Source: Moniliella sp. 'wahieum'
Lineage: Eukaryota
DNA length: 64,000 bases
Direction of reading: 5' to 3'
Assembly: GCA_003971905.1 (NCBI GenBank)
Contig: RSEE01000054.1
Coordinates: forward strand, 372,001-436,000
Under the pieces are notes generated by a model. That model was not told the origin of the DNA. It ran no database searches and was given only the letters and a program-made list of their open reading frames with translations. Numbering within the stretch: the first letter of the stretch is position 1; every line of letters starts with the position of its first letter. Both the position numbers and the translations under genes were made by a program. Shown piece by piece: positions 1,651-63,687 of this stretch.

Positions 1651-4600
1651 TTAGAGACAAAACAGCCGCGTACTCTTACGTTTCGTCACTTCCTCCAACC
1701 GAGCCGAGAGAGCTTCGCGCGCTTTATCGCGTGCAGCGCGTTCCTGTTCAATCTGCAATTCGAGCGCTTGGCGCTGTTCCTGTACACGTGCCTGGGTCTG
1801 GGCCAGTTCGGCAGTGGCCGCATCGACTTGAGTTTGCAACTCGCCCGATTGCGCCGCAAACGCATCGCGTTCCCGCGTCACTTCCGATACTTGCGTTCGC
1901 GCTTTGCGCAAATTGCGTTCGCTGTCGTTCAAGGCCGCTTCCAGCGTAGCGACCAAATCGGACGACGCGTGCGTTTCCGCTTCCAAGTGCGTCAACTTGG
2001 CTTGCAAGCGCTGGATCTCTTCCTGGGCACGCTGCTGTTCTTCGGGCGGGACCGTGGCCAAGGGCGCCATCACCATGGGCGCCGGACCGGCGGGGGCCGA
2101 CAGTGCCGGGCCCCGTGGTCGTCATGGACGATACCGAGTCGGCCAAACTGGAAGAACGAGTGAGCGAGGCGGGGCGGGCGGGACAGCCGTCGGGGTAGGT
2201 GGTGGCGGGCCTGCCGGAGGCGGCGTGGGCGGCGGAGGCGGTACTTTGCCACTGCCTGACGAGGGGCTGGCGCGATGCGCATGCGCATGCGCCGTATCCC
2301 ACGACGTGATTCGTCCTGGTGTCGCGTCTTGCTGGTCCAGCGTTGAACGCTGCGCTTTGCCCCCCGTCGAACGGAGGGATACCGCGCGCTCGGCGTGGGC
2401 CAAACGTTGTTGCGCGTCACGCAACAGCGCCTCGTTGCGCGCCGCATCTGCCAAGGCTGCTTGCGCTTCGGCGCGGGACCGAGCCAAGTCGGAGCGGGCT
2501 TGAGATAAGAGGGTACGGTGGGAATCCAGTTCGGCGAGTAAGCTAGCGTTGGCGGCGTTGCCGCTGCCATTCGTGCTGCCGGGCTCGTGCTGCATACCGC
2601 CCCTACTGCCCCAACTGCCCGACCCGGCCGAGGGTCCCAACGAGTCGCGTAGGACGGCGAGGTCGGTGGCAAATTGGTCGCGTTCCGCTTGGGCCTCGGT
2701 CAAGGCGCCTTCCAGCACGACAAGTGCGTCGGAGGTTTCGGCGAGCTCGGCTTTGAGCATGTCCATCTCCACGGGGTCCACTTGGACTTGGGCGGACAAT
2801 TGGGCGATGCGTGCCTCGTTGCGAGCGGCCACGGCGCGCGCTTCGTCGCTTGCCTGCCGCAACGCCGCGCACTCGTCGACCAACCGACGTACTTGGGCAT
2901 CGCGCTGGGCCAGTTCGCGCGCATGCGAGCCCACCGTCTGGGCATGGCTCGCGCCCAGCGCATCGAGGTCGTGGGAAGCGGTGTTACGTGCTTCCTCGAG
3001 CAAGGCAAGTTGCTTGCTGGTCTCGTCAACGTGGCGAGCGAGACGAGCCGCATGAGCCGCTTCGACCTCCTGCACCGCCTTGGCGTGCTCTTCGTCGCGA
3101 CGTTGCAGCTCGGCCTCGTTGGCCTGTTTCAACGCTGCCAGCGCCGCGGCGCCCGTCGCCTCGCCTTGCTCGCTCAGCTGGGCCAAGGCGCGCGCGTGCG
3201 TGTCCTGCAGGGCGGCGACCTCGGCCTGGGCCTGGTCACGGTGCGTGCGTTCGGCTTCGGCCAATGCGTCGGCATGCGCACGCTCCAGCATGGTCACTGA
3301 CGCTTGGTGCTTTTCCTCCAGCGCTTGGAGCGCCGTGGCAAGCGCAGCTTGGTGCTTTTCGTCCTGCGCTTGGAGCGCCGTGGCAAGCGCAGCTTGCTGA
3401 GCGTCCTCCGCTGCGCGCGTTTGGGCCGCGTGGTCATCAAGAAGCTTGGTCTGCGCCTCGGCGTGCTGCTGCTGCAACTGGGCTAGCGCACTGGCGTGCT
3501 GTTCGTCCGAGCGAGCGACGGCGGCTTTGAGCTCGCCATGCGCCTCGGCCAGCGCGCGGGCATGTTTCTCCCAGCGAGGCCAGGGCAGCGTCGTGCTCCG
3601 AACGCAGCTGGGCCAGAGCGTGCTGATGGTCCTCAGCGACCTGGGCCGCGGCCGCTTCGGCTGCTGCCTTGTCTTCCTGCTGGGCCTGACGGACGGTATC
3701 CAGCTCAGCTTGGTGCGCGTCGCGCAACTGGTCCAACGCAGTCTCGTGGTCAGTCTGCAACGCGGCGAGCGCAACGGTATGCTGCTCGGAGGTGGTGCGC
3801 AAGCGGTCCTCGTGCTCGGCTTGGAGGGTACTGTGGGCGTGGGCGAGCTGGTCAGCCTGCTTGGCCAGCGCGTCTGCTAGGGCAGCACGATGGGCCTCGT
3901 CGCGCTCTTTTACGGCACTCGCAACGGCCGCGACGGTGGCCGACGCATGCGCCGCCTCGGCGGCCTGCAGCGCGCGCGCATGCGACTCGGCCGCGTCGTC
4001 CCGGGCGCGCTGCAAGTCAAGCGCATGTTCCTCCTTGGCCTGCGCCAGCGCAGCGGCCAGGGCTGTCTCGTGGTTGCTTTGTGCCTGGTACAGCGCGTCA
4101 GCCTGCTGCGCGCGCCATTGGGCCAACGAGTTGTCCCTTTCTTCTTGCGACTGCGCCGCCCGAGCCTCGTCCTGCTCGGCGGCGGCACGAGCGGCGGCCG
4201 CCTGCGCCTCACGCTCCTCCCGCAGCGCTTGCGCATGTGCCTCGTCCCGCGCCGCCAGCGCCGCCTTGTGCTCGGCCAAACGCGCAGCCAGCGTTGCGGC
4301 CGCTGCGGTCTCGGCGGCAGCAAGGGCGGCAGCATGTTTTATCGGCTTGCGCTTGCGCTTCAGCGTGAAGCGACTGGAGCGAGGCGGTGGTGCGTGCTTG
4401 GGCTTCCTCGGCCGCCTCGGCCCGGGCTTGGACCAAAGTCTGATCCGCCTGCTGCAGCGCTTCCTCATGGGCCGCCTTGAGACTGGCGATGGCCTGGTCG
4501 TGCTGAGTCTGCAGGGAGCTGAGTTGGTCGGCATGCTCGGCCACGCGCGCAGCCAACGTTGCGGCCGCTGCGGTCTCGGCGGCAGCAAGGGCGGCAGCAT

Positions 4601-7600
4601 GCTTTTTATCGGCATCTGCTTGCGCTTCAGCGTGAAGCGACTGGAGCGAGGCGGTGGTGCGTGCTTGAGCTTCCTCGGCGGCTTCGACCCGGGCTTGGAC
4701 CAAAGCCTGATCCGCCTGCTGCAGCGCTTCCTCATGGCCCGCCTTGAGACTGGCGATGGCCTGGTCGTGCTGGGTCTGGAGGGAGCTGAGTTGGTCGGCA
4801 TGCTTGGTCTCCATGGCCGCGAGGGCTTGGTTGTGCTCTTGGATCAACCGAGTTTGGGCGGCGGTAGCCTGTTCGGTCTGGAGGGTGGACAAGGCAGTTT
4901 GGTGTTTGGTCTGGAGCGCGTCGATGGCCTGGGCATGGGTTTGGTCTGACTGGGCGAGCGCGCGCGCGTGGGTCGCCTGCGCTTGTTCCAGCGCATGCGC
5001 GTGCTCAGTAGCTTGCTGTGCCAGCGCGGCGTCGTGGGCCGCGGTGAGCTCGGCAAGACGAGCGGCGTGCGCCGCTTGGCTCTCTTGGTTCGCGCGCGTG
5101 GCCTGGCTCAGTTGCGCTTTGGCCGCGTCGGCCTGCTCGGCCGCCTCGGCAGCGGCGACCTGCGCAATCGCGTACTGTTCCTGCAGCGCACGGTGCGCTT
5201 GGGCCAACAGCGTGGCGGCATGGTCGCGCGCGGCCAAGACACGGGTGTGCGCCTGCTCTTGTTCGGCCATGTGGGCGGTATGGCGAGCGTCAAGCGCGGT
5301 CAACTGGTCCTTGTGCGTGTTTTCCTGCGTAGCGAGTTGGGCCATCAGTTGTTGCACTTGGGTCTGCATCGAGTCGCGCGACGAGGCGGATGGCGAGGCA
5401 GGGTCAGCGTGCAGCGCCTCGGTCGAGCCATTGGCCACCTCGGCTGCACCCACGGCCGCCAGCTCATCCGCCAAGGGGGTGTTGGGTTCCGTCCGACCGC
5501 GCACGGTGGCCGCAACATCGGAAGAAGAGGACACGCCAACTTGCTGCAGCCCATCCAGCTCGTCCTCCCTCTGGATCAGGAGCGCTTGCAACGTGTCCCG
5601 CTCGCGTTCCAAGGAACGGATCTTACGCTGAGCCTCTTCTGCAACCGCCGCCGCAGACGATCCTGCCGCCTCCGCTCGCCCTGCCACCGTCCCGCCCACC
5701 AGGGACAAGGGTCGGCGGCCTGGTTGGGACGAGGTGGAAGCGGAGCGGGCGTGCAAGGGCTTGGTGGGCGAGGTGGCCTCGGTGGGGCTGCCTTGGTGGG
5801 GAGCTGGTACATCGTTCAAGTCGCGTGCGGTGGAGGGCGCATCGGGTGGACGGTAGGCGATGCCCGAGTTGGACCGACGGTGGGTAGCACGGGAGGATGG
5901 ACGCGAGGGCGTGGAGAAGATAGCAGCGTCGCGGCCAGAGAGCGAGTTGCGCCGGGACGAGGCTGAGAATGACAGGCTGGAACGGCGACTGAGCCGGCCC
6001 TGGCTCGGCTGGTCACTGTCTTCCCCTCCATGCAAGAGGCGGGCAAGGTCCGGCTCGGTTCGGCTGCGCAGGGACGGGTGCCACGTTTCGCGACGGGTGC
6101 CGGTCGAATTGCGTCGCTGCAGCGCCTGGACCGAGTCGTCGTTGTGGATCGAGAGTACCTCGAGCGGATCGTCGGTACTGGAGCTGTTGCGCGTACGAGA
6201 GCTGGCGGCCGGGGTAGGCACGGACGACAGCTCGGCCACCTGCGTGGCCAACAGTTCGGCACGTTGCAACGATTCTTGGTGAGGGATTGGGCGGGTACCC
6301 AAGTCGGCCATCGCGGCGGCATACTTGGCCTTGATTTCCGCCAGCTCGGTGCGAACGGTGGCCAGCTCTGTCAACTCGGCACTGGATGCCGCCTCGGTGG
6401 ACTGGGCAGGAGACGGAGCTTCAGGCGATGCCGCCTGCGCACCAGACGGAGCGTCAGACGAAGACTCCAGTGCGCGCGACGGAGCGTCAGACGAAGACTC
6501 CAGCGCGCGCGACGGGGTGGTCTGGGCCTGTGCCTTGGCCTGTTCCACCTCGTTCTGCAGCGCCTCGATACGTTCTTGGCGAGCATCGAGCTCAGCAAGC
6601 AACAACTTGTGGTCCTGCTTGGACGAGTCGAGGTCGTCCAAGGCGTGTGCGGCGGAGCGGTCGTGGGCCGCTTGGGTTTCCCACTGGCTGAGGCTAGCCT
6701 GGGCGGCGGCCAAGTCGGTATCGGTCTGGGCCAAGCGAGCTTCGAGTTGTTGGATGTAAGATTCGTTGTGCTGTTCGCTGTGCTGGTGCCGGGCGAGGTC
6801 CTTGCGTGCCTGGGCCAAGGTCTCGACCAGCTGCTGGTGCGCTTGCTGGGTCGTGTGCAGCCGAGTCTCCAACTCACTCGCATAGTCTGCCCGGCGGCCT
6901 CGCGATCGGTCAACTGCACCGCGGCACTCTTCATGTCCGCCACTTGCTCCCCCAACGTCTCGGCCAGCCGCTCCTTTTCCGCCAGCAAGTCCTCCTGCTC
7001 CACCACGTGCTGTTCCAGGTCGGTAATCACATCCTCCGAGTGGCCCAGGGCGGCCTTGAGCAGGTTGATCTGGCCCGTCAACACGTCGATTGACTTTTCG
7101 TACTCGAGAATCCGGCTCGGCCGATTCGAGAAAGGTGTCCTTGCCCCGCTCCTCATCGGAAAAGTCGGGGGCCATAAGATCTTGCATGGTGGACGACTGA
7201 CGGCGCACCCGCTGACCCAGCCGCGTCTTGTCCATCTTGAGCTGCGCCACTTCCTGCGCCAGCTCGGCAAGGCGGTCCTGTTGGTTCCGGATGATCTCCT
7301 GGGCCTCGCGCGTGCCCGTGGGGAAGAGAGCCGAGGAGCGGAGTTTGGTGCTACCTGCGCCGGCACCTGCCGACGCCGGCGCCGCACGGCCGGCACGTGC
7401 ATCGAGCAGGTCACGGCGCAGCTTGGTCACGAGCATCTGCATGTGCGCCAGGTCGTCCCACCCGGGCTCATGTTCGTTGACCTCGGCCTTGTTTTTGATG
7501 GCGCGAGCGCGCGAAGCATACTGCAACGTATTCACCGTCTCACTCAGGTTGTACTCGGCGGGACTGACACAGGCAATCATCAACGTGTACGCGTTGCCCC

Positions 7601-13052: not shown

Positions 13053-13665
13053 AGTGTAAAGCATCTCTCTTGCCGGTTTTTTTTCTGGCACGTGCTCCTC
13101 ATCTTTCCTCTTCGTCATTCTCCCCTTTGCATCTCGGGGTCGGTGGGTCGGTCGTTGCCTGTGGTGTGGGACCTGTTGCCCCGGATGCCTCTACGCTGTC
13201 CCATCCATACCCGGGGCGGCCTGCTGCAACGGCACATACGCAACAGCATCAGCATCAGCAACAGGAACAGCAACAGCACCCTAGCGAGCCTTAACGCTTC
13301 GGCATGTCCGGCCTGGCTGCATCATCCGCTCTTCATTCTTCCCCCTTTCCCCCCCCATCTTGCAGACATGTTGTTGCCGTCTACGGCCCTCAAAAATTGG
13401 CGCCCTGCAACTACGCCTCGACCCCGTTTGTCTTGCCATAGCATTTTTTCCTAGCCAGTTCGACCCCGCGAGGTCACCTGGAGAAAGGCTCGCTGTGTGG
13501 GTAGCCAGCAGTAGCTAGCGAGCTAGTTTGTTTGCCCGTGCATCGAGTGCTGTCGGCAACCCCCACCAAACGAAAAACGAAGGAAGCGGCCCGATGCAAA
13601 TCGAACGGGGGCAGTTGTTCCAGTGGAACCACCTGGAGACTAGGGTGGGTTTTTTTTTTTCAGTT

Positions 13666-13689
13666 TCAACGTTCAACGTTCAATATTCA
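13666..13689. repeat. TCA + 4-bp palindrome heptamer array upstream of ARO2
   Basis: TCA ACGT TCA ACGT TCA ATAT TCA. Confidence 0.85.
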
Positions 13690-13872
13690 ATGGACCATTT
13701 CCGCTGGAATGACTGACTCGTGGCGTGTGGAGGAACATTTGTCGAATATCTCCGTCGACGGGCGTGGGCAAGTCGCCCGATCGGGTCAGCACTTGGGCGT
13801 GGAGCGCCACCGGTTTTCTTTGTTCCACCACCGCTTACCCTTTTGCGCCGCGTTGCTGTCGTCTGCCCCAGC

Positions 13873-18100: not shown

Positions 18101-19089
18101 CCAAAGCGCTGCCATCACAACGTGAGATGTTGGCTTTGGGATTGGGACTGTATCCTGGGCGCCACCCGAAGAAGCCATCGCGGCGTCAATGCTCAGAATA
18201 TATCAACAGCAAACCGTTGTCCAGATAGATGAGTGTGTTTTGTTGTCTGCTGTCCTAAGGGGACTTGGGCCTGCTGGCTCCTCGACGGGGAGCAGTTGCA
18301 GCAAGGGGAAGAAGAGGTGGGACAAGGGGGACGGATGGATAAGAGGGAGGATTTCGGTGATGCTAAGGACGGTGGGTTCCGGTTTTGATGACGGGGAAAG
18401 TACGACTATTCTCACAATTCTCACGGTTCTACAGGTCTCATGGCGGCCATGCTGATATTAGGAGCTGTGGCCAGAAGTCGCCCCGATCGCCCCTCAACCC
18501 TTGTATTCGCCGTGCCAGAAAGGGAGGGTAAAGCCCGCCATCACCCGGGAAAGGGGAACATCGCTTACGAGCAATACAACAGCAACACGCCCCCCCCCCG
18601 CGCTCAGTCTCCTTAACAAAAGGGAGTTGAGGATGTTGACCGGTCAACCCCGGCGTTGTTGGAATTTCCCCTCCTGTCTAATCTCTATCCGACTGGTATA
18701 AACGTTGGCAAAGCGAAGCAGACGAAGCAACCGAGACGCCTGCGACTCAAGGCTGCAAAGCTCCGCGGCGCCAAAAGAATATGATCCACTGCGATATCAC
18801 TTGTTCGTATATGTATACTATCCAAATCCACCATCTGCCTCCCGTTCCTATATCTCACGTTTCGTTACTATCACATTAGTTCAAAAAGGGTGCCCGTTTT
18901 CCTTCTCACGCTCTTGGTCCATGTCAGATCCCCCCTGCTCGGATATACGTTCGATATACCCTCTGTTGGACGGGGTAGATACCCTTGGCGCACGGGTCGC
19001 TGCGCTCTGCGCGGGAGGCGGGGCTTTTGAACGTGTGTGGAAGCCTGTTGAGAGGCCTGGGAGACTGGTGCCATTCCGTTTGGCTGAAC

Positions 19090-19420
19090 CCAACGTTGAA
19101 TAACGTATTCGTACGTTGAACGTATACGCGTGGAACGTGTGGAGAGTAGAAAACTGTGGACGCATGCTACTCACACGTGCATGTGATGCATGATGTCACC
19201 CGTGTCACATGACACAGGTCACAATCTCATTGCATTTTCAGGAGAGCCATCAGTGAGTGCATGAGATGCGTGACACTGTGACGGACCGCATGTCACCTGA
19301 CCGGTGACATGCGACATGTGACATGTGACATGTGACAGGTGATCATCGTCAGCGCGTCAGCAATCATGTAATCACTATAGTACCTAGTTACTGGTTACCG
19401 GTTACCAGTTACCGGTTTCG
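19090..19420. repeat. Cluster of TNA + palindrome heptamer arrays
   Basis: (TGTGACA)x3 at 19317-19337; CTAG TTA CTGG TTA CCGG TTA CCAG TTA CCGG at 19384-19415. Confidence 0.9.
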
Positions 19421-20867
19421 CTCAGACCCTCAGACCTCCTTCGACTCATCGATCCATTACACAGTGAGCTGCGACGGCGACCGCCTATATAGGGCCCTAA
19501 GCACTACGCCCCACCCAGTATATAGTGTGTAGTATAGGATCAGTATGGGAGGAAGGATGGGAAGTGACACCAAGTCGGGAGGGTGGACGGGAAATCTGGC
19601 ATATATATATAGTGCACATAGTGCTACATGCTGAAAAGATGAGTGTGACGCGGGACGTCGGATGTGGCTGGCCCCCCTCTGATGAGAGTGACCCGGTGAT
19701 ATCTTCCCGGTTGCCAGTACCGGTTACCCTTGGTCACCACGGTAACCCTTCCATCAATGTGACGTTCAGGGTGTGGACCCCCTCTCTGCTATAGTGCGAC
19801 TCGGGAGCACTCGGCAATCTTATGGATCAGCTGCAAAGCAGCTCTGAAGTCAGACAAGGCGTGTGAAGCATGAAGCTTGAAGGGTGGAGCCACAAAAAAA
19901 ACCTTGAAGAAGCTCATTGAATATTGAAAACGTCTGAAGGGACAAGAGACGGACATCTCATTAGAAATGAGGGAGTTGGAGCGAGTAGTGCAGGGGGTGC
20001 GCAGCCTGCGAGTGCAATTGTTCCTCCCGGATAGGCGAGCGTCACCGATCAATCTGGGGCCGTGCAGGGGAACTGCAGCACTATACTCCTGCACTCTCTT
20101 CTCTCCTCTCGTCCGTGTCAGGCGTCAGGCGTCAGGCCTGCTGAGTGGTCGCCCAATAAAGCATCAGTGCATTAGCATATCTCTCCCTTTGTACGCCATC
20201 GCTTTCCTTCTGTGTCGTTTCATATCATTTGCAGAGCTTATTTTATATATTACGAGGCTCAAAGGATGGAAAAGAAGCACACACGCTTTTGAATAGTGAG
20301 GACACTATGGATATCTGAGTAATCTACAGCACCTATAAAAGCAAAGAACTACCGCATAGCGATGTACAGGCATCTGTGTCACAAATGATCATAATTGATG
20401 CATTGAAGATAAGAAGGGCAGGGAACATGATATAGAGAAAAAGGTAGAGAATCAATGAGATCAATAAGCGCAAGAGAAATTAATTGTGTAGAAGAGATAA
20501 ACCAGATTCGTGTGCGGATGAGAGCACAAGAAAGGGAGAGAGAGATACAATAAACGAAGAGGAAGGAGCAGCGTTAAAAAAAAGACGTCTCCGGTGTGTC
20601 CCACAGTTGAGGGCTATACACAAGATTCGAGGGAGATCATCATGTTGAGACCCGCGGTCCCAGACATAGTAGGCAAAAAGAAACTGTCAACGAATGACTA
20701 AGCTTGCTCCAATTTCCATTCTGCATTCTGTGTCTCTCGCTCTTCCCCTTCCTTTTGCTTCCGTTCTCTGCCATGCCTTCTGTTTCCTTCCACGAACGAA
20801 CTTGCCTTTCCCCTCGGCTTTGACAAGCACCTCATTACCCTATTTCCCCTTTTTGACCGTCGAAGAA

Positions 20868-21023
20868 GCCTCCATGTGTAGACTCTCCACCTGTTCGAAC
20901 CCATGCCTCTTCCAGATGGGGAAGAAGGGTTATATTACCCTAACCACCACCGTTATTGCGATTGCATTGCTCTGCCTTTCCAGAGGTTCACTATCCAAAT
21001 CCTTGGATTTCTGCGGTCTTACA
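20868..21023 (+). mobile_element. Second, diverged copy of the LTR-like terminus
   Basis: Aligns by eye (roughly 70-75% identity) to the reverse complement of 441-599. Shared blocks TGTTCGAACCC, AAGGGTTATAT, GCGATTGCATT, CCAGAGGTTC, CAAATCCTTG, and the same end CGGTCTTACA. Confidence 0.75.
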
Positions 21024-21960
21024 GGAGACTATAGAATTGGTACAAAAAGGACGGGAAATGCAGCAATCACTGACCGGGAAAACGAACAGAGCATAAGGAG
21101 CGGCGTATAAAAGAGCAGGAAGGAAAAGTCGCTGGTATCCCACTAATATTATATAGTGTCCTTTGGGCTAGTGTCACTCCCCTTCCTTCTTCCTCTTCTC
21201 TTCCACAGTCTGGGCCGGAGCCAGCTCCCTTTACTTCCTTCATCCAATGTATAACTGCACTTAGGACATCTTTGTGGGGAACGAGTGTCACGGTCCTCTT
21301 AACTAATCAGGGGATTCTTCTCACCACTCGTCTTCCCGCCGATCCTGTTCTCCCTTCTCCCACCAGTGCATCTTTGGCTTCCCTTGGTACTTGGTCTCAC
21401 TCGTATTCGCCCGACTCTTACAACAAGGGCCATTTTCATGACACCCGTCCCGGCATCACTAGTGACTCCACCCTCTCTCAGACCCCATCATCAAAATGTC
21501 CCTCGAAGCATGAAGTAAACTGAGTACTGAGTGTTGAGTATCTAAGTACTGGGTTGTCGTGTCCCAACACGTTTTAAGCATCGAGCAACGATAAACGGAA
21601 AACGTTAAACCCCAACACAGCTCTCCATTATCCGGGAACGAATGATGCACGTCCCAGCTATTCGCAAAAAAAAACCACATCACAGCAACCGCGCGGCGTG
21701 TCTGTATAATTTCTCTGGGGTTGGTTCTCATGTGTGCCCTCGTGCTCTGGCCATCGCAGCAAAACAACAGAGGGGTCGGAGCAAATCCGTTTATCGTGGC
21801 ATAGAACAAAAGGGATGGACAAGAGGCCGATGTGGAGGCCGAGACGGATTTTATATGAGTGGGTGTGGCGCATTATACACTGTGTTCTGAAGCTATTATG
21901 GCGCTGACTTTCTTGGGAGATATCAGGATCACCGATCACAAATGTTAATGATAGGCGCAT

Positions 21961-22933
21961 GGTGACCGGTGACCGGTGACCGGTGACCTGGGTCCGGGTG
22001 ATACAGTGATGCATTTGGAGAAAGCGCGAAAATCAGGGACACAGTTACCGAATAAGGAGTGATGTTAATGCATAACGCATGGTGGTGCATAGTGGGAAGT
22101 GGTCCCATAGGGTCAAAACACGGCTAGTGGCTGCCTATGTTGGGGAATGGAGGCGATTACTGTCTCGCCGTGATGCATGATGCATGATGCATCATTGATG
22201 CTGGGGTGGCAGCTGGTAACCGGTAACCGCCGGCGTATTGGCCTGTGGTGGATACTTGGGTTCCGCGCTTGGCATATCGCGACACGTCCAGCTATACCGC
22301 TCATGGCTCCAAAGAGACCTTAAGGCCTAATGTCCTAAGGCCTAAGGCTTAGGCCTAATGGCACGCTGTAGGGCCAAACAATCACGTCCTCACATGTTTT
22401 AAATCACACGTGTCACACATGTCACAACGCCTCTTCTTAGAAACCCTCAGACAGAAGGGGTCTTGTTGTTCTGAACACCATATGTCTTTTCTCATCGATA
22501 TCATTTCGCCTCCGGCCTGAGCCTTTGGCATCAGGCCCCCAGGGACCTGACCTCAGGCCTCATCGATATCCACCTCATCGACCTCATCGACCCCATCGAA
22601 TCGGCCTCATCGATCTCATCGAGATCGTCTTCTCTCTTCAGCGCATTCACAAATTGTCTCGGCGTTGTTTGCCCAACCGGAGCTTGAGGGATCAGAAAAG
22701 GGGGATATGACAGGGTGGACAGGGTGGGACTTGCAGCGGGGCCGAGGGGGGCCGAGGAGTGGATACCCCACTCAGAGGTTGTGGAAGCCGATGCATCACT
22801 GATGTGTCAAGTACAACGCTAATAGTAACGTTCGATGGACGTCGGACTTCGAGAGAGCTTAATGCCAAAAGTTGAAGAGGCGCTGAAGCTTTGAAGGTTG
22901 GATCAAGCCTGAAGTCACTAGTCACTAGTCACT
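21961..22933. repeat. Cluster of TNA + palindrome heptamer arrays
   Basis: (GGTGACC)x4 21961-21988; (CATGATG)x2 22176-22189; (GGTAACC)x2 22215-22228; (CCTAAGG)x2 22334-22347; (AGTCACT)x3 22913-22933. Confidence 0.9.
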
Positions 22934-23699
22934 AGTCGACCTTGACTTCATCAAAGACCTTCACGCTCTTGACGTGTCCTGTTCCTACTCAGTATGTCTA
23001 ATTGGTTCTTTCATCCTGTGTGTGGTCCTTATACCCGCGCCTATTATTACTGAAGCGGAGAGTCCACACTACGATTTACTTGAAAGCCTAGGAACCTCTT
23101 TAACTATTTTCAGCACCTCGCCCTGTGCTCCTGCTACGAAGAGATCGCGATCCCTCCGTCAACAGATTCCGGGTGCACAGAGCGCGAAAATGTTTGGGGG
23201 AAAATAATGCAGGACTTTGGTGAAGGGCAGATGCGAGGAAAACAAAACATTAATAAGAGGCAGTCATGTGGCCACACCCCCGTAGAAAATGATGGGTAAT
23301 CCGGTAGGGTAGTCTCCCGGTAACCCTCGGTAAGCCCAAAGCGCCATAATACCGGAAACCTTGTGAACAAACCATGAATCACATCCAGAAATGTATATCA
23401 TCCTTTTACCTCGTCGACAACCCAAACGGCAGTCCTTTCCTCTTCTCCATGGAGGTGCATATATGTGAGGGTGGTGAAGCTGAAGCTTCATGCATGAAGC
23501 TTGCAGCAGAGAGGGTGAATAAGTGTGCCCTAAGGCTTCCCTACCATTAGTAGTTGGACAGTCGCGCTTTTGCGTTGGCTGGTTTGTGAAATGTGAATGG
23601 CCTCGGTCACCTGGGGCCTGACCGGGACCGCAGATGTGGCCAAATCTCCCTCCCTCCCTCCCCCATCCCTTTATGTGGTTCCTTCCATTCAATGTCATA

Positions 23700-24340
23700 A
23701 TATGCAGGCGTTGTTGAATATTCAGCTGAAGCTTCAACTTGAAGCCTGAACCTGAGGCCCATCAGGGCTCAGCGCTGTTGAGGCTCAACGCTCAACGAGC
23801 GCTCAGCTGAGCCTCATGCCTCACGCCTCAGCCTGAGGCCTCAGGCTCCAACAGGCTCCAAGGCCGTTACATGCCGTTGCAGGAGGTTACATGCTACAGG
23901 TGACCGGTGGCTGTTGAACGTTGAACACGTTGAACGTTGAACGTTGAACGTACTTGTGACATGTATGACATGTGACATGATGACAATTGATTGTGATTAT
24001 CACGGTAGTCACCGTGATAAGCTTCTATGACCCCTGTACCACATATACAAAAGCGTTAACTACTCTTTGAGAGACCAGCTTGGACAAGATGAGACTGTTC
24101 CTGGAAGTAATTTATTGGTGAAACCCGAGACCTTAAGGCTTTTCAACGTTGAACGTATAGTAATGAGAACGTTGACGATGTTGAGAACATTGACTCCGCC
24201 TCACACAGCCCTCAACGTCCTCAACCCTCGGCCTCAACTCTCAGAACTCAATCTCAACCCTCAGGCCTCAAGGCCTTAACGTTCAACCGTTCAACTTGAA
24301 CCCTCAACCCTCTCAGGCCTCAGGCCTTAACCCTCAATCG
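23700..24340. repeat. Cluster of TNA + palindrome heptamer arrays
   Basis: (GTTGAAC)x5 with one 2-bp interruption at 23913-23949; many TGA AGCT, TCA GGCC, TGA CATG and TCA ACGT units. Confidence 0.85.
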
Positions 24341-24348
24341 TTGACACA

Positions 24349-24457
24349 TTATAAGACGAGGAAGTGCTATTGGATGATATTTTTAGCGCCTTGGCAGCCT
24401 TTTCGCTTGTGCTTCTGTTGGGGGGGTAGTGCTAGGCTTCACCTGCTCGTTATAAGA
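24349..24457. mobile_element. Tiny MITE-like insertion (93 bp) with 8-bp TSD
   Basis: TTATAAGA at 24349-24356 and 24450-24457 flank 24357-24449. The insert ends are imperfect inverted repeats (CGAGGAAGTG vs reverse complement CGAGCAGGTG, 8/10). Confidence 0.45.
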
Positions 24458-26431
24458 TTTTTTAGTTTATAGTACGGATGGCACCATACTGCATCGGTCG
24501 CTGTTACCCTGTATGGCTGCCATACGTGTGGGCGGAAGCCGTTGTGCACACACCAATATGAGAGTTTCTTTACATATAAAAAGGGGTAAACGTTTAGGAC
24601 GTTTAGGGGCTTAGATGCAATTGGCAGAGAGACAGCGTAGCAGCAAGTCGGTATCGCTCCAATCTCGATAATTATATCTCATCTGCATTATTTTAGTCGC
24701 CACCAAGTCCAGACTCGCTGGTGGTGGAACCTTCACAACTGAACTACCAATCGGACGCGGAATGGGGTGGCGGCAATGGGGCTATAATAAAATGTATGGT
24801 GTTTCCATCAGGCCGGCACCAGGTGTGGCATGTGAGCGACGAACCATTTGAATAGCAGACGAGATCTTAGATCTTACTGCATAAAATCACTAGTGACTTC
24901 TGCACTTTTCCCCCCAGGTCTTACTGGTAGAATATATGGTGTTGTTTGCCGGTAGCCGCGCTTGTGCATCATTGACGAACTTTTGCTCATGTCATCATGT
25001 CATATGTCAGGCTCAGGCGCATCCCCGCTGAGACTCTTTTTCAGAGAAGGCTACTGTAGAACGATAGTGCGTTATCGTTTAGTACCGCTTGTGGTCGGTT
25101 CGACAAAATAGTTCGGACGGCCCAAAATCAAGAATAAGTGTTAGCCACAATAAGGCACGGTTCAAGAACCGAAGTAGTCATGATCCCTGTCATGTTCCCT
25201 GTCAACGGAGGTAGGTTCGGCAGGATCGCCCTTCTCCTGGTTTATGCTGTCTTTCGGTGCCTTGTTTGATGTCAAACGGACATGTACTTGTAATTCGGTT
25301 CAGGGAAATGCGACAGAAAATCGGCATACTGGCAATGGTTATAATGATTCGATGACGCGAATGAGGTATGGGTATAGAACAGAGCCATTCTACTATTATT
25401 TTTATTCAAGTTCTCTCGCTCTCGCTTCACATTTGCAGCAGTGCTCCAGCTCCATCTGAGCAACATCGAGACTCTCGTTCGGCACCGCTTCTCACTTGGG
25501 ACTCTTCGAGTCGTTCGGATACATCATTGTTGTCTCTCGATTCCAAACAGGGCATCATTGATGCATGGATATAGGAGGAGGACCACTGGGCCTACGGCCC
25601 GCCCAGCTTTTTGGTGCTTTGTCGCCACCTTAGCCACCGTTCCCCCTTCGCCACCGTAGCCACCGTTCCCCCGTCGCCAACACCGACATCGAAATAATAT
25701 CACGGATACTTGCTGGCTGCGGGTGGCGTGAAATGTGGTACATTCATTGCATGTTTTCCCCCTATTCACGGTATACTGCTGGCCATAGGCCATTCTTACG
25801 GCGTGTATAGTCGTATGTGTCTTTGGCTTTTCGATGCAAAGTGTGTATATCGAAATTGTTTTGCTTTCAGGTGTCCCCCACGACACGCTGAGCGGGGGGA
25901 GGCTCTGGCACATATGTAACCTCTTTCTATTTCGTGCAAACATATACGATTCGGACCTGTAGAGAGAGCCGGTCTGGTACACGGCACTGGGTATATACTC
26001 ACAGTGCCACTCAGTGTACACTGGTCCTGAAAAGCAACTTCCCGCTTCAACGTTCAACGTAAACGCGTTACGCGTTAACATTCAACCTGCAAAGGACCTT
26101 CCACGTACAAGCCGGGGTATCTGTGGCGCATGTGGGGGAAAGGAGGGGAGCGTGCACAGGTTACTAGTTACAAGCTGTTACATGTTACTGCTATCGTATA
26201 GTTTTGTGTGCGGACGCGTGTGACATGTGACATGCGACGCGTGTGATTGTGACGATCGGCGATGTGACCGACACCATGCATGATGCACTGACTCCACCGG
26301 TGACCGGAGAGAAGTTTATTAATGTGTAACGTTTAACCGGGTAAGCTTGAGCCAGGACGGCAACAGGCGGGAACCAGTATTTCGCAACGGGTAATGGTTA
26401 CCGGTTAAGCTTTAAGTAACACCCGTTTTCA

Positions 26432-26478
26432 GGTGGCTGGTGGCTGGTGGCTGGTGGCTGGTGGCTGGTGGCTGGTGG
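26432..26478. repeat. (GGTGGCT)x6+ 7-bp microsatellite
   Basis: Six full units plus GGTGG. Confidence 0.95.
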
Positions 26479-27759
26479 ACGTGGGCCACCCAGGAACAGG
26501 CTTGAAGCTTGAAGCTTCAATATTCAGTCCATCTACCTCCCTTTTGGGGGTGTTGGGATGGTCAATAGCCACCACGAGCAACCCATTGCCAGTGCCAAGA
26601 AGCTTCAAGCCTTCGAGCTTCGGCGGTGGAGACAGCTACGATACGCGATACACAGACACCCTGTGCCCGCCATGCGTGGGATGTATGACCTGTGTTTACA
26701 TATGTTCTTCTTCATTTTTGGCTGGCACAGGCCAGGGGCCCCATCACCACTTGAGACAAAACCACCCCTCCAAAACAAACATAGGGACCCCTATACTGTT
26801 CCTACCTGGTGCCTACAGGTGCCTGTAGTGCTGGAGCCGAGCAACTAACCGCGTACGGGTTGCACGTTGCCTGCGGGTCCGGGAGCCCTAGCCGTGTCTA
26901 TTGGAGTTCTGGGCTTGGCGGCGCTTTCCTCTGTGGACGGGTCCGCAGACCCTACTGCCCTACTGCAGTCACCGCGAAGGGCCACACCCTGCCACTCCAT
27001 GTAAAAGGACGAAAAACAACCACCCAGTTAACTATTGGCAACACAATGGACGTTACGTGTTCCTCTATGAAACAGGCTGTCATGCAGTCATGTATTCGAA
27101 CTCAAAGCTTAAGCGCTTGGGGCTTCAACGTGAACGTACGTGCCACAGAGAAGAAGTCTGTGGCATGCTCTGCGAGCGCTCACCCGCTCATCCGCTCAGC
27201 GCTGAGGCTCAGCGCTCATGCGCTCATGGGCCCAGCTTTGGAAACTTCAACCGCTTCAACACATCATACATCATGCGTCGTCATGCATCACCTAAACCAT
27301 TCAATATTCCACGTTCGACCTATGCTCTCCGTATCCATATCCATTCCCCTTCGCCTTAGGCCTTACGGATGCGCCGGTCCATCAGTGGCTGCTCCTAATA
27401 GTGATCAGCGTCTAGAAACAACAGTGGCACTTATCGAAATCATTAACCGATGTGAGTGACATCTATCCTATATCTTACCCCCATTGGCGCAGAGAAAACG
27501 TGAATGTGTATCGTCAGCGTGTCAGCGAACTTATGAGCGCAGGACCATCTGTGGCATCAAACTGGTTTAGCGGCGCCGGTAGCCCAAACCCGGATCCATT
27601 TCCGATGCATTCCTTCCAATATTCCGTCCAAGATGACAGGAATATTCTCTGGCCTCTGTAGCTCATACCTACAATGCAATGTACCATCAACTGCCTGCTC
27701 TCTGGTCTTCTCTACACCATCAATAACCAAATGCTGATGGGTGGCAAAAGAAGAAACGT

Positions 27760-28720
27760 CAGCGCGTCAGCGTCAAGCTTCAAGTCGATTCGCCCCAATA
27801 GTTACTAGGTATTCATAGTCGCTATAGTCAGTCACTAGTCACTAGTCACATCGGTCCCGCTGGTCACACTAGTCACTTCTTGATTAGACTAGTCGCTCGC
27901 TAGGATCTAGTCAGCACTCGTACGTACTCAGTACTCGATACTCAGTGAGGTACTCAGGTGCTCGAGAGTACTCAGGCCTCAGGCCTCAGGACTCAGGTAC
28001 TCAGCAACCAAGCTTCTTCAAGCTTCAAGCTTCAAGCTTTAAGCCCAAAACCACTAGGTTCTAGACTCTAGTCACTTAAGTTACTATTTACTAGTCATTT
28101 GCCAAAGCGACCAAACTCGATCTCGTCGATAGTCACTCTAGTCACTAGTCACTTGCTTGCAGTCACATGTCACAGCGACCTGTCTTCCATCTGGAGCGAG
28201 TGGATGGAGTCACAGTGGGGCTAGGCGGAACCCGCGGAGCCCCGGGTTAAATACCGATAAAACCACATCAACATAGGAAACGCGAGAAGTATAAGAAGCT
28301 GGGAGATAAATAGTAAGAGAAGTTGAGAATGTTGAGAGAAGCTGATGCGCTGATGTCGATGATGTCGATGATGGTCTATTGCAGTAACATGTAACAGTCA
28401 ATGTTCATGTTTTTAACGTGATAGCCTAACCGCTTGACGCTACAAAGCCTGCAGATGGTAGCCTCTGGTAGGCCGTCGTATAGGCTGGGGGGAGGGGGGG
28501 GGGGACTGATGCACTGATGAGACGCGGCGAGCTGCGCGGCGTATGCAAAACCAAGGCGCTATTAGCTACTACTTTCTAGTAGCTGTAGTTACTGATGGTT
28601 ACTAGTTGCTAGTGACCGGTGACCTTCTCTAACTTTTCACTAGTGAGACTGTGACATGTGTGACTAGTGACTGCATTATTAGCACGTTACGCGTTACGCG
28701 TTAGGCCTTAGGCCGGCCGG
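27760..28720. repeat. Cluster of TNA + palindrome heptamer arrays
   Basis: AGTCACT units 27830-27878 and 28131-28153; (CCTCAGG)x2 27977-27990; (CTTCAAG)x3 28016-28036; TTA CGCG TTA CGCG TTA GGCC TTA GGCC at 28687-28714. Confidence 0.9.
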
Positions 28721-30145
28721 CTGAGGTGTCTCCGAGCCCTGTCGGAAAATAGGCGGCATGGTTCCCGGTACGCTTAGACCCTTAGGCTTCAGGAAAGGCC
28801 TTAGGTATCTTGGCATAGAGAAACGCAGTGTCACATTGCCGCCGGCACGGCGTCACGCGCCACTGCGCCACCACCCAATACCCAGAAAAAGGTCGTCTTC
28901 TGGATGGCTTTTTTCAAGCTTTTGATGACCCTTGCCTCGGGGGTTCTGCGGTCACGCTCAAGGCTCACCGGTCGACAGTCATCCGCCACCAGTCACACGG
29001 TCACGGGCTACGCATCCTACATTGCATGTCACATTGTAGCAGATCCCAGACTAGTCGCGCCTATCCCACACCTCCATCATGTCACAGGGATCACATATGT
29101 TACACTCGGCGTCACATGCGTCACATGTCACAGCCATCCTGTCGTCACCACGTTACTATTTGCTAACTGCTTGCCCTGTCCATGTCACTATCACTAGTCA
29201 CTGTCACACTGTTGCACGAAGCTGCTGGTACGCTCGGTGGGCGGTGGTGCACTGGAAACTCGAGGGAACATAGTGAACATGGGAACGTACTCGAACGAAC
29301 CGTCGTGATGTTCTGCCTGGGCACAGCAGTGCGTCAGTGACCGAGCGATCCGCCTACCGCTGAGGCTCAGCGGTGATGCTCAACTCTCAATCTCACGCCT
29401 CCAACCTTCAAGCTGCAAGCTTCCCGGCCAACATTTCGCCCCAAGCGCACCCCTTTCGACATACTACGTAGCGGGAATACAAAGCCGTAAGCGGCAACAG
29501 GCAAGTACGGGTAAGGGGTACGCGCCACGCCCTGCACCGCAACGCCCCAGGCCGCTCAGTCTGAGCACTCAGTCAGTACCGGAAGTACTCGACCTGAGGC
29601 CTGTGGCCAAAGTGCTAACCGGTGCCACCATCCACAACACTCTCCCCTGCCCTGGCCGGCACACAACACACAATCCAGCACACGCCGCGCTGTCACCAAG
29701 TCACAAGTCACATGTGAGCCGGCGAGGCGCCTGAAGCTTGAAGGCAGGCCCACGTCCCTGCCCTCCCAGTCGCCCTACCTGACCACTCGGCACCACAGTA
29801 CCTCCTTCCTCGTTCCCACCACCACCACCACCTCCTCTCTTACTTCGCTCCTCGCTCCTCCACTCGACCCTACACTCCCGTTCGAATTGGCTCCCGCCAG
29901 CGATTGGCTACAGCAGAACGCAGCGGCACCTTATACACCCACCGCTGCCTTTCTCGCTCCCTTGTCACTCGTTGGGGTCTGCTCTTCGTCTCCCTTTCTT
30001 TCACTCTACCCTTGCCGCTGTTTCGACTCGTCTCGTCTCGTCCCTACCCGACCCGTCTCTTCTTCTCTCGTCCCGTCCCGGCCCGTTCCGTCCCTTCTTG
30101 TCTTATCTCGTACTTTCTTGTTTCCCATTTTTCATTTTGTTCGCG

Positions 30146-32473
30146 ATGACGTTTTCGACTTCTCCTGCTCTCGCCACTTCAACTCTTGGCATTACCCCCA
30201 TGGCACATCTCTGCAAGGTACCCCTCCCGTCTCTCCTCGGACTTCGCCCTCCCCAGACACGCCGGGCGAATCCAAGGTCTCCAAGTCGACCACTCGCTCC
30301 CCCTCGTCCTCTCGCAAGGCTCAATCTGCCGGCCAACGCAAGAGATCGTCTATCGGTGGGGCCACCGCGTCCGCCAACCAGGCACCTGCACAATGTGAGC
30401 AGGAAGACGATGACCTGTCCACTACCGTCTCCATGGCATGTACTTTTTGCCGCCAACGGTACGTTTCTCGTGTTTGGCTATTCATTGATTTTTTACAATC
30501 ACACCTACTAACCGTCTTTCTTAACCCTTTTCGTCATTGTAGCAAGATCAAATGCAACAGCGCCAAGCCGGTCTGCAGTGCTTGCCACAGCTATGGCCGC
30601 AAGTGCGTTTACCAGGCGGTTCACGGCTGAAGCCAACGCGGCATTGCGCCTTGCCAAGCGCACTCGTCGAGCCCGCCTGGCTGCCTCTTAATCCTGTGGC
30701 TCCGTCGCTGCAGTCGTGCTTGTTAGCCAAAAGGTTGTGGCTAACGTGACCACTCGGGTGCACCAGCACACAGCGCACTCAACCAGATTGACGAGTCGAT
30801 GCAGGTCTGGCCTTGTACTCAGACAATGGCGAATCGCTCTCGCATCTTCACCACGCCGTTCGCTCGCCCGACGATGGTGTGGTGAACCGTGCCTCCACCC
30901 CAGTCAACTTGGATGAACTTCTTACCGTCGATTCCGATGTGCAGCCGTCAAGTCGAGGTGAATATACCTCGCTTCACCCTATGTACGCGATTCCAGGCGA
31001 GGCCAGTGCCGCCACCCCGTTTGCTCCCAGAGCTCATCATCAAGCTCAGAGTTACTCCCACTCCGCTGCCCCATCTATTCCATGTGGTAAGCTAGAGGGA
31101 CCCGTAGTACCTCCCAACGAAATCCTCAGCTTGTCGGGGTACGTGCCTTCGGTCAACCTTGGCAAGCCGATGTGCCTCCTGTCCCGTTACCGTCTCCTCT
31201 CGATTCGAGGTCTCCAAGCAACATGGGTTCGGCCATGCCCACCTTTATGCCCGTGTGGCCCGATACGCCGAATGCGGTACCGTTTACGTCCTCCAAACAC
31301 CGTTTCCGGATCGCCATTGCCCATGCTGTTTACCCCGCAGCCCTCGATGGGACGGACGAAGGAGTGGGAGGGTACTGCTTCCGAGACATGGTGGAGTGCC
31401 CCCTGCCCTTCGCGTTCGTTGCCTTCCTCCTTCTCTGCTCTATCGGGACCGGGACCGGACTCCATGTTCTGCGACCCCAACAACGTGTTGCGCCAGAACC
31501 GGTCGTGGATGGCGAGCAACCTAGGTATGGCAAACTCCCCGCTGCGAATTCCTCGTCCGAGGGTGGCACGGAGACCTCTTCATCAGCGGTGGGAGCCAAT
31601 GGCAGCAAGTGACCCAGCTAGGCTCTTGTGTTGATCTTGACCTCTCCCTCCTGCCGGAGAAGATGGGGGAGGCCATGTCGACGTCCTCTGCTGCCCCCAT
31701 GCAAGGGCTGTCTCAAGCTTGGACCAACAGCCACCCGGGTTGGCAAGCTGGTGCAGGGTTTACCCTCCCGAACACGGAGGCTACGACGGAAACGGTTGCG
31801 ACGGAGATCAAGTCGAGGGAAGCGATGGAGTGGGACTTGTCCCGCACTCCTCCACTTTCTCCCTCGCTTTCTCCGTGGCCGTCGGAGGCAGGGACGGTTG
31901 ATCAATCGGTAAGCACTCGGCGGGAGCTGCGCCGGCCCGTGGTTGTCAATCCTCGCCTATACCATGTGATTGAGGTCATGAAGCAGATCCAAACCCCCGC
32001 GCAAGTGAGTCCGCTGGCTCGCCGCCGCCTAGCACGGCAAGCGCAGTCGACCGCTGCACACTGGACCGGTCCGAGCGTTGGTCCGGGTTCGAACGACGGA
32101 TCAAGTGTGCCAACCAAGACGGGCAGCACCTTGCTCGGCGATCCCAACCAACAGTCAGGCGCAGGGTTCTGTTGGAGTTGGACATGGCTGATTTGCTACC
32201 TAGCTCAACCCGTCTCAGTGGAGCACACCGTGCCTCGTTGAGCGTGGGCTGAGCTTTTGTCCCCTTTACTCCAACCACGGATGATCTGCTCACCCCCCCT
32301 CGCCTGAACGGCTGCCGGCTGGGTCAGATTATGCCCCCCCTCCCATACTGGGGCTCATGGAATCGTCCTGCATGCCCACACAGGAGGAGCTGCTTGTGTC
32401 GGAGTTTATGGTGGACGACCCCTTTGCCATGTCGCTTAATCTTGGTGATCAAGCTATGTCGGCGGGGGTATGA
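30146..32473 (+). CDS. Zn(II)2Cys6 fungal transcription factor
   Basis: After splicing intron 30459-30542: ACTFCRQRKIKCNSAKPVCSACHSYGRKCVY (C-x2-C-x6-C-x6-C-x2-C-x6-C). Ser/Pro-rich body and acidic end EELLVSEFMVDDPFAMSLNLGDQAMSAGV*. Confidence 0.85.
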
Positions 32474-63600: not shown

Positions 63601-63687
63601 TCATGCGTCACGCGTCACACTCATCATGCACCATGCGATGAGCCAGAAGGATGGCATGATCATCGATCATGCATCATGCATCATGCG
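63601..63687. repeat. TCA + 4-bp palindrome heptamer arrays upstream of SEC13
   Basis: TCA TGCG TCA CGCG TCA at 63601-63617; TCA TCGA TCA TGCA TCA TGCA TCA TGCG at 63660-63687. Confidence 0.85.

Follow-up and report, generated by a model that had tools for sequence, protein, structure and literature searches.

How can a short tandem array exchange one palindrome for another without losing its register? The question is raised by a 64-kb stretch of the genome of the fungus Moniliella sp. 'wahieum' (GenBank assembly GCA_003971905.1, contig RSEE01000054.1, positions 372,001 to 436,000 of the forward strand), hereafter the window, in which triplets of the form TNA (N, any base) alternate with 4-bp palindromes at a constant spacing of 7 bp. 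A preliminary description had quoted four such arrays, all of which are present letter for letter: 28687–28714, 26503–26526, 13666–13689, and 63660–63683, the last reading in full TCA TCGA TCA TGCA TCA TGCA TCA. The duplication of a 7-mer, ab-TNA-cd, together with short inverted copies of its flanks at the junction, can be read directly from the letters. We propose, as the probable though far from certain origin of the arrays, that a cut-and-paste DNA transposon, or a nuclease derived from one, left them behind as stacked excision footprints, its target being a 7-bp staggered cut centred on TNA.

The pattern is abundant and strongly localized. A TNA triplet, a palindromic tetramer, and a second TNA follow each other directly 93 times in the window, 67 times with the same N on both sides and 26 times with a different N, compared to means of 2.3 and 4.9 (maxima 7 and 12) in 200 dinucleotide-preserving shuffles of 2-kb blocks. 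Bins between 18 and 30 kb, which take in a gene-free tract at 18.5–30 kb (hereafter the tract), hold 78 of these 93 links, and the remainder lie in other non-coding stretches, e.g., at 13.7, 52.5, and 63.6 kb. When all 64 triplets are placed in the same frame around a palindrome, TCA, TGA, TTA, and TAA account for 67 of the 165 cases. The links assemble into 71 chains (56 single, eight double, and seven triple), and mixed arrays make up six of the 15 multi-link chains. The links draw on 15 of the 16 possible palindromic tetramers, with AGCT, CTAG, GGCC, ACGT, CCGG, TGCA, and CATG found 9–13 times each. Along the same lines, spacers of 4 nucleotides (nt) between equal TNA triplets occur 92 times in the tract where 10.6 are expected, and palindromic ones 58 times versus 0.6; spacers of 5 nt (36, with 11.0 expected) and 6 nt (31, with 10.6 expected) are also in excess, and those of 0, 7, and 8 nt stay close to expectation (13 versus 10.7 for 0 nt; 14 versus 11.1 for 8 nt). 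The single palindromic 7-mer, xyTNAx'y' (primes denote complementary bases), was tried as the primary motif and rejected, its enrichment being only modest (255 versus 178 expected).

Mixed arrays are real and are not point-mutated copies of homogeneous ones. In-register neighbouring tetramers form 16 pairs of the same palindrome and six pairs of different palindromes, five of them at a Hamming distance of 2 and one at a distance of 4, which bears out the earlier remark that the palindrome changes between neighbours while remaining a palindrome. Pairs of a palindrome and a non-palindrome number nine at a Hamming distance of 1, five at 2, and one at 4. Independent substitutions, taken at this 16:9 ratio, predict about 0.1 different-palindrome neighbours, and 5–6 are seen (Poisson p ~1e-7); similarly, half of the neighbours at a Hamming distance of 2 are palindromic (5/10, versus 6/54 expected; p = 0.003). 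Chance adjacency over the 142 chain ends would supply at most ~1.9 different-palindrome neighbours, a figure that is an upper bound because the rate behind it, the local frequency of a palindromic tetramer plus TNA (0.013 per position), includes the arrays themselves. Thus, with tetramer transitions tabulated within the window, mixed arrays exceed what point mutation and chance adjacency would give, and they are not point-mutated copies.

What, then, determines which palindrome is used? Period-7 identity extends beyond the outermost triplets of the chains. It holds just outside them in 47 of 71 chains at position +1, 47 at +2, 46 at −1, and 43 at −2, and from the third base outward it drops to 19–30 of 71 (27–42%), with a sharp step between positions 2 and 3. 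The repeat unit is therefore y'x'-TNA-xy, a TNA-centred 7-mer, rather than a triplet plus a tetramer. For a site written as ab-TNA-cd, a simple flank rule emerges: left-hand tetramers read b'a'ab, and right-hand tetramers read cdd'c'. Three mixed arrays, at 28687, 63660, and 26398, follow the formula [ab TNA b'a']m [ab TNA cd] [d'c' TNA cd]n without deviation on both sides; those at 13666 and 26503 fit on one side and are off by one base on the other, and the array at 23481 fits on neither. Together, the six mixed arrays match in eight of 12 flank tests, each with a chance expectation of 1/16 (p ~9e-8). In the array at 28685–28714, the hybrid unit CG-TTA-GG would then be the original target, its left flank CG giving rise to CGCG and its right flank GG to GGCC.

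The rule holds well beyond the mixed arrays. In the 71 extended chains taken together, 66 of 108 tetramers are among those that the two flanks allow, {cd+ab, cd+d'c', b'a'+ab, b'a'+d'c'}; 2000 permutations of the flanks among chains average 14.4 such matches and never exceed 30. Even some non-palindromic tetramers are accounted for as plain cd+ab junctions, e.g., GGAC at 27986, CCAG at 19402, and CAAG at 29701; the first of these is GG+AC, the simple junction of two AC-TCA-GG copies, and stands beside two palindromised units. The idea that triplet and palindrome behave as separate modules is accordingly not supported: the tetramer is not free and is set by the flanking dinucleotide. The other option that had been put forward, a hairpin/template-switch step that keeps the tetramer symmetric, is supported. 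Since each tetramer is set by the flank on its own side, a mixed array takes at least one left-type and at least one right-type event at the same TNA, and the original preference for repeated independent events at one site over pure slippage is upheld.

Flank dependence is equally visible in the simplest chains. Among the 36 single same-N links, 13 match the right flank only, nine the left only, seven both, and seven neither, i.e., 29 of 36 match at least one flank, where 12% would be expected. A control with one common definition gave matches for 31 of 39 TNA triplets versus 22 of 92 non-TNA triplets. The period-7 runs of these single links peak at 12–13 nt (18/36), and 23 of the 36 measure 10–13 nt. 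A plain 7-bp duplication needs at least 14 nt, so runs of 12–13 nt are too short for it; they equal five duplicated plus two inverted nucleotides.

Independent evidence was obtained by a test that makes no use of palindromic tetramers and considers every TNA pair in which both flanking dinucleotides are repeated, i.e., in which the complete 7-mer is copied. Where two extra nucleotides separate the copies, these are the reverse complement of the neighbouring dinucleotide in nine of 13 cases (12.5%, or 2/16, expected; p = 3.3e-6), four copying the preceding cd and five the following ab. Where one extra nucleotide is present, it is an inverted copy in all seven cases, two of which are the same motif at two loci. 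Three or four extra nucleotides, corresponding to distances of 10 or 11 bp, gave no cases in this test. Two unbiased scans were also made: among 5-nt period-7 runs in the tract, the inverted dinucleotide is found in 10 of 12 TNA-edged runs versus four of 21 others, and a scan for 7-mer copies 8–11 bp apart met noise outside the tract from coding repeats.

The changes of triplet polarity fit into the same framework. Perfect 10-bp palindromes of the form TNA-pal4-TN'A, i.e., with complementary N, number 16 in the tract versus 0.6 expected. Polarity switch points are perfect palindromes with arms of 5–6 nt; for instance, TTGAAG/CTTCAA at 26509–26520 and ATGATG/CATCAT at 22184–22195 both have 6-nt arms (the slash marks the centre). 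A polarity flip is the same inverted copying run through the central N. Odd-centred flips with a 3-nt spacer are also in excess (11 versus 2.5 expected) and form a smaller class than the even-centred cd/d'c' palindromes, of which the tract holds 58 with the same N.

A fixed direct duplication combined with inverted flank copies at the joint is the signature of staggered-cut integration and hairpin-capped excision ends. From it we infer a hairpin, a nuclease, and a transposon, which would act in four steps. (i) Insertion: the element would duplicate ab-TNA-cd. (ii) Excision: its departure would leave both flanking ends sealed as hairpins. (iii) Opening: a host nuclease would cut the hairpins mostly 2 nt 3' of the tip, generating self-complementary 4-nt overhangs, cdd'c' on the left end and b'a'ab on the right; with both hairpins opened at +2, the duplexes would end exactly at TNA. 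(iv) Joining: one overhang would be ligated to the opposite recessed 5' end and the other lost, yielding either ab TNA cdd'c' TNA cd or ab TNA b'a'ab TNA cd, with a net gain of 7 bp.

Ligation of a single overhang would explain why 7 bp are gained, why the tetramer has to be symmetric and depends on one flank, and why both flanks are used about equally (13 versus 9). The 8-nt spacer, in which both overhangs would be kept, is found at the level of chance, which is what two 3' tails that do not complement each other should give. The 9-, 8-, or plain 7-bp junctions would come from a hairpin opened, on one side, at the tip or at +1, and opening 5–6 nt from the tip would copy through N, turning TGA into TCA. 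Each new unit would again be a TNA-centred 7-mer, hence later hits would lengthen the array in register, and a left-type plus a right-type hit at an asymmetric site would give a mixed array of the above formula, with the hybrid ab-TNA-cd at the switch. Two other geometries, a 3-bp target-site duplication (TSD) plus element termini and a 5-bp TSD, were considered and are ruled out, the left copy carrying cd and whole 7-mers being duplicated.

Several observations weigh against excision footprints. The flanks leave 42 of 108 tetramers unpredicted, and flanks that do not match nevertheless agree at one base out of two in 26 of 36 cases versus 40% expected, hinting that sites have since decayed or that near-palindromic targets are preferred. 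Seven of the ten homogeneous same-N multi-link arrays match both flanks, which calls for slippage or for an original site that was itself palindromic. For the 738 TNA sites of the 11.5-kb tract, ~140 events are inferred, a very high density; by a Poisson estimate from these figures, double hits per site would be frequent with no need for a hotspot. The window contains no pair of terminal inverted repeats (TIRs) of at least 10 nt flanked by equal TNA. Identical TNA-centred 7-mers lying 30–9000 bp apart (1248 pairs) have TIR-like ends only inside arrays; any identical 7-mers (56,564 pairs) gave a single TIR, matching at 12 of 14 positions and of low complexity; and a search of 12–31 kb for direct and inverted repeats returned nothing beyond the short arrays themselves. 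No transposase domain was detected among the 141 open reading frames (ORFs) of the window scanned against Pfam. We know of no transposon family with a 7-bp TSD and a TNA-centred target. The palindromes are even-centred, unlike the Ac/Ds pattern described in PMC5873905, and the whole case rests on a single 64-kb window from one genome.

The best-surviving rival does without a transposon: palindromic heptamers would form hairpins during replication, expand by slippage, and become symmetric through template switching (quasi-palindrome correction). Arrays of palindromic 7-mers are indeed self-complementary except at N, template switching yields the same final sequence as hairpin opening, and homogeneous arrays made of whole units occur, such as the 4.0 copies at 21961–21988; the frequent agreement of homogeneous arrays with both flanks counts in the same direction. 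Ordinary 7-mer slippage does take place here, as shown by the perfect (GGTGGCT)x6.7 array at 26432–26478, which has neither a TNA centre nor a palindromic tetramer, is left unexplained by the hairpin-footprint model, and is probably plain slippage. However, slippage requires a pre-existing repeat, yet most chains are single links whose runs mostly stay below two units. It also leaves unexplained both the TNA centre and the one or two inverted nucleotides between complete non-palindromic 7-mers, and the palindromic 7-mers on their own are enriched only modestly. As a complete account, it therefore appears unlikely to us, although slippage may still grow homogeneous arrays once two copies are present, in a manner inseparable from repeated hits.

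Could the arrays instead be footprints of PIF/Harbinger-like elements? TNA, or TWA, is the classical 3-bp target of IS5/PIF/Harbinger elements, and PIF/Harbinger and IS5-type elements mostly excise precisely. A TNA triplet would then be the TSD, reported as 3 bp for Harbinger in PMC12730594, and the tetramer would consist of the two terminal nucleotides of each TIR, different families leaving different tetramers. With perfect TIRs, the two bases contributed by either end would indeed form a palindromic tetramer, and the triplet is constant through most arrays. Yet the tetramers are used fairly evenly, which would imply about ten families; the 8- and 9-bp junctions duplicate complete 7-mers, not 3-mers; and adjacent equal TNA triplets (spacer 0) are not enriched. 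Above all, it is the host flanking dinucleotide and not the element that predicts the tetramer, which strongly disfavours this origin and makes it, in our judgment, very improbable. The notion of functional arrays with palindromes kept by selection, e.g., clusters of sites bound by a dimeric protein or a feature of chromatin or of the centromere, is one that we consider equally unlikely: the intergenic or promoter location of arrays (e.g., 13666, upstream of chorismate synthase) and their clustering in one gene-free, lower-GC (guanine plus cytosine) tract speak for it, but selection on binding sites predicts neither 15 tetramers nor dependence on the outer flanks nor 1–2-nt inverted copies between non-palindromic 7-mers.

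The principal arrays and junctions, and the tract in which most of them lie, are collected in Table 1.

Table 1. Heptamer arrays, non-palindromic junctions, and the gene-free tract of the window. Positions are those of the window; lower-case letters are flanking bases; cd, ab, and P are the labels assigned to the successive tetramers.
Feature	Position	Strand	Remark
Mixed array [CG TTA CG][CG TTA CG][CG TTA GG][CC TTA GG]CC	28685–28714	+	Labels P/ab, P/ab, cd/P; both flanks match
Mixed array ga TCA TCGA TCA TGCA TCA TGCA TCA tg	63658–63685	+	TCGA from left GA, TGCA from right TG; both flanks match
Mixed array gg TTA CCGG TTA AGCT TTA ag	26396–26416	+	Tetramers differ at 4/4 positions; own flank predicts each
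Mixed array with polarity switch ct TGA AGCT TGA AGCT TCA ATAT TCA gt	26501–26528	+	Left flank fits; right has 1 mismatch
Mixed array tt TCA ACGT TCA ACGT TCA ATAT TCA at	13664–13691	+	Right flank fits; left has 1 mismatch (tt vs gt)
Homogeneous (GGTGACC)x4 (gg TGA CCGG ... TGA cc)	21961–21988	+	Exactly four whole palindromic 7-mers
(TGA TGCA)x3 then TCA	22171–22195	+	Flip is the perfect palindrome ATGATG/CATCAT
9-bp junction CG TCA CA + TG + CG TCA CA	29110–29125	+	TG is the reverse complement of the preceding CA
9-bp junction GT TGA AC + AC + GT TGA AC	23920–23935	+	AC is the reverse complement of the following GT
9-bp junction GC TAA TC + GA + GC TAA TC	52583–52598	+	Outside the main tract
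8-bp junction AG TAA CC + T + AG TAA CC	52956–52970	+	T is a 1-nt inverted copy of the following A
Array ac TCA GGCC TCA GGCC TCA GGAC TCA gg	27970–27995	+	Labels cd/P, cd/P, cd/ab
Gene-free, lower-GC tract	18501–30000	.	GC 48–55% vs ~60% elsewhere; contains 78/93 links

A few further repeats deserve mention. The two longest perfect palindromes of the tract, at 23483–23502 (10-nt arms, AAGCTTCATG/CATGAAGCTT) and 23830–23847 (9-nt arms, AGCCTGAGG/CCTCAGGCT), are composed of the same TNA-tetramer vocabulary. An imperfect 9-bp array of ~6.6 copies, ATCGACCTC, occupies 22561–22627, and its unit, CC-TCA-TC + GA, is a 7-mer plus a 2-nt inverted copy. A 17-mer made of two CGTCAGC copies with one G or T between them recurs at 19345–19361, 27510–27526, and 27755–27771, i.e., at sites separated by 8 kb, through either independent formation of one and the same footprint or the copying of a short segment. 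Outside the tract, (CGCGAAC)x3.9 at 1022–1048 can be read as AAC CGCG AAC CGCG or, alternatively, as plain CG-AAC-CG copies, both flanks being the self-complementary CG, and (TCATGGA)x3.6 at 54085–54109, with the non-palindromic tetramer TGGA, lies just outside a 326-codon ORF (54181–55158, minus strand).

Apart from the tract, the window is gene-dense. ORF enumeration gave 198 ORFs of at least 130 codons, part of which were covered by the Pfam scans; these took in 141 ORFs (17 + 34 + 90). Pfam matches identify kinesin domain ORFs at ~4.2–9.5 kb, RPL19 at 11.7–12.4 kb, and dynactin at 58.2–59.5 kb, all on the minus strand, as well as chorismate synthase at 13.9–15.1 kb and a Zn2Cys6 factor, the domain of which lies inside the ORF at 29515–30630, both on the plus strand; RRP14, an RCC1-like protein, two sugar-transporter fragments, and an F-box protein were also matched. 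The best named relatives of the dynactin fragment at 58614–59474 (minus strand) are from Tilletiaria anomala (54% identity), Violaceomyces, and Ceraceosorus, which places the source among the Ustilaginomycotina (Basidiomycota); the kinesin and dynactin domains mark the DNA as eukaryotic. A 267-bp unit is repeated 2.0 times at 94% identity at 4269–4804, inside a long minus-strand ORF carrying the end of the kinesin motor domain, and is probably a duplicated coiled-coil segment. The mixed array at 13664–13691 precedes the first chorismate synthase ORF fragment (13903) by ~210 bp. Amid these genes, the 11 kb between 18700 and 29700 stand out by their lower GC content, and over ~18.7–29.7 kb no scanned ORF had a Pfam match, and the tRNA and Rfam scans found no tRNA and no Rfam match. 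This tract could be a transposon landing zone, a graveyard of decayed elements, or a centromere-like region.

If the arrays are indeed stacked footprints, several consequences follow. Tandem 7-bp repeats would have a simple mechanical origin, the unit being one insertion–excision cycle and the tetramer one opened hairpin; past transposon traffic could be counted at single sites without an element present, and the arrays would predict both the target and the duplication length of the element. The scars would record, event by event, where the host hairpin-opening nuclease cuts in vivo, giving for a basidiomycete an opening spectrum of mostly +2, with some 0, +1, and +5/6. Transposition would thereby generate microsatellites and new promoter-proximal sequence. 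A more ambitious reading, in which the TNA-centred 7-bp target belongs to an unrecognised transposon family or to a domesticated transposase active enough to have written a measurable share of the intergenic DNA, is tentative and seems to us rather doubtful; were it correct, such an enzyme would be a steady source of heptamer repeats and new sequence in promoters and in the 11-kb tract, itself perhaps a favoured landing site or a region resembling a centromere. A limited open-access literature search turned up neither TNA-centred palindromic heptamer arrays nor stacked footprints described from fungi. The chemistry is known; as far as we have seen, the 7-bp TNA-centred target, the in-register stacking, and the density have no precedent.

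How do the arrays compare with known systems? Elements of the hAT group generally duplicate 8 bp with the consensus nTnnnnAn, whereas the arrays described here have a 7-bp duplication with T and A at positions 3 and 5. The general scheme is nonetheless shared with transposons that form hairpins on flanking DNA, such as hAT (e.g., Ac/Ds), MULE, and Transib: a duplication with palindromic (P) nucleotides arises via flank hairpins, host opening, and end joining. PMC5499845 describes, for hAT, Transib, MULE, and RAG, hairpins on the flanking DNA and footprints left by end joining. Ac/Ds footprints consist of short deletions or P-nucleotide insertions in Candida albicans, have palindrome arms of up to 20 nt in S. 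cerevisiae, and have at their centre the complement of the element-adjacent base, according to PMC5873905. Compared to Ac/Ds, even-centred cd/d'c' palindromes dominate here, and the footprints are stacked in register at very high density. With even-centred palindromes and a duplication of 7 rather than 8 bp, the heptamer arrays are not filed under hAT.

Closer in duplication length are two groups of Basidiomycota transposons with 7-bp TSDs, hAT7 in Pucciniales and Kyakuja in Laccaria, the latter (KDZ) having CA..TG termini and a KDZ transposase, as given in PMC12730594. The arrays resemble hAT7 and Kyakuja in both the 7-bp duplication and the basidiomycete host; no homologous transposase or termini were found in the 64-kb window. 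The T-N-A core at the insertion point is shared with PIF/Harbinger and IS5, from which the arrays differ in that the duplicated unit spans 2 nt on either side of TNA, 7 bp and not 3, and in the unenriched spacer-0 class. Similarly, head-to-tail 7-bp units are a feature of heptanucleotide microsatellites grown by slippage, which differ from the mostly single 7-bp gains with an inverted dinucleotide, and from the switches between two flank-determined palindromes, that are seen here.

The nearest parallel in hairpin opening is provided by the P nucleotides of V(D)J recombination (RAG/Artemis; Pso2 in yeast). According to PMC3299998, the cut that Pso2 and Artemis make in a hairpin falls 2 nt 3' of its apex, and PMC2175297 gives +2 as the primary Artemis cut, the dominant product being a 4-nt inverted-repeat 3' overhang within a range of 2–8 nt. 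Such an overhang equals the tetramer of the arrays in size and symmetry, and the +1 to +4 opening range of V(D)J parallels the 1- and 2-nt additions seen here, whereas the 5–6-nt flip arms exceed it. Unlike V(D)J joints, which arise by programmed rearrangement, the arrays would be a germline fungal record in which a target duplication made by integration comes first, and they carry P nucleotides with no N additions.

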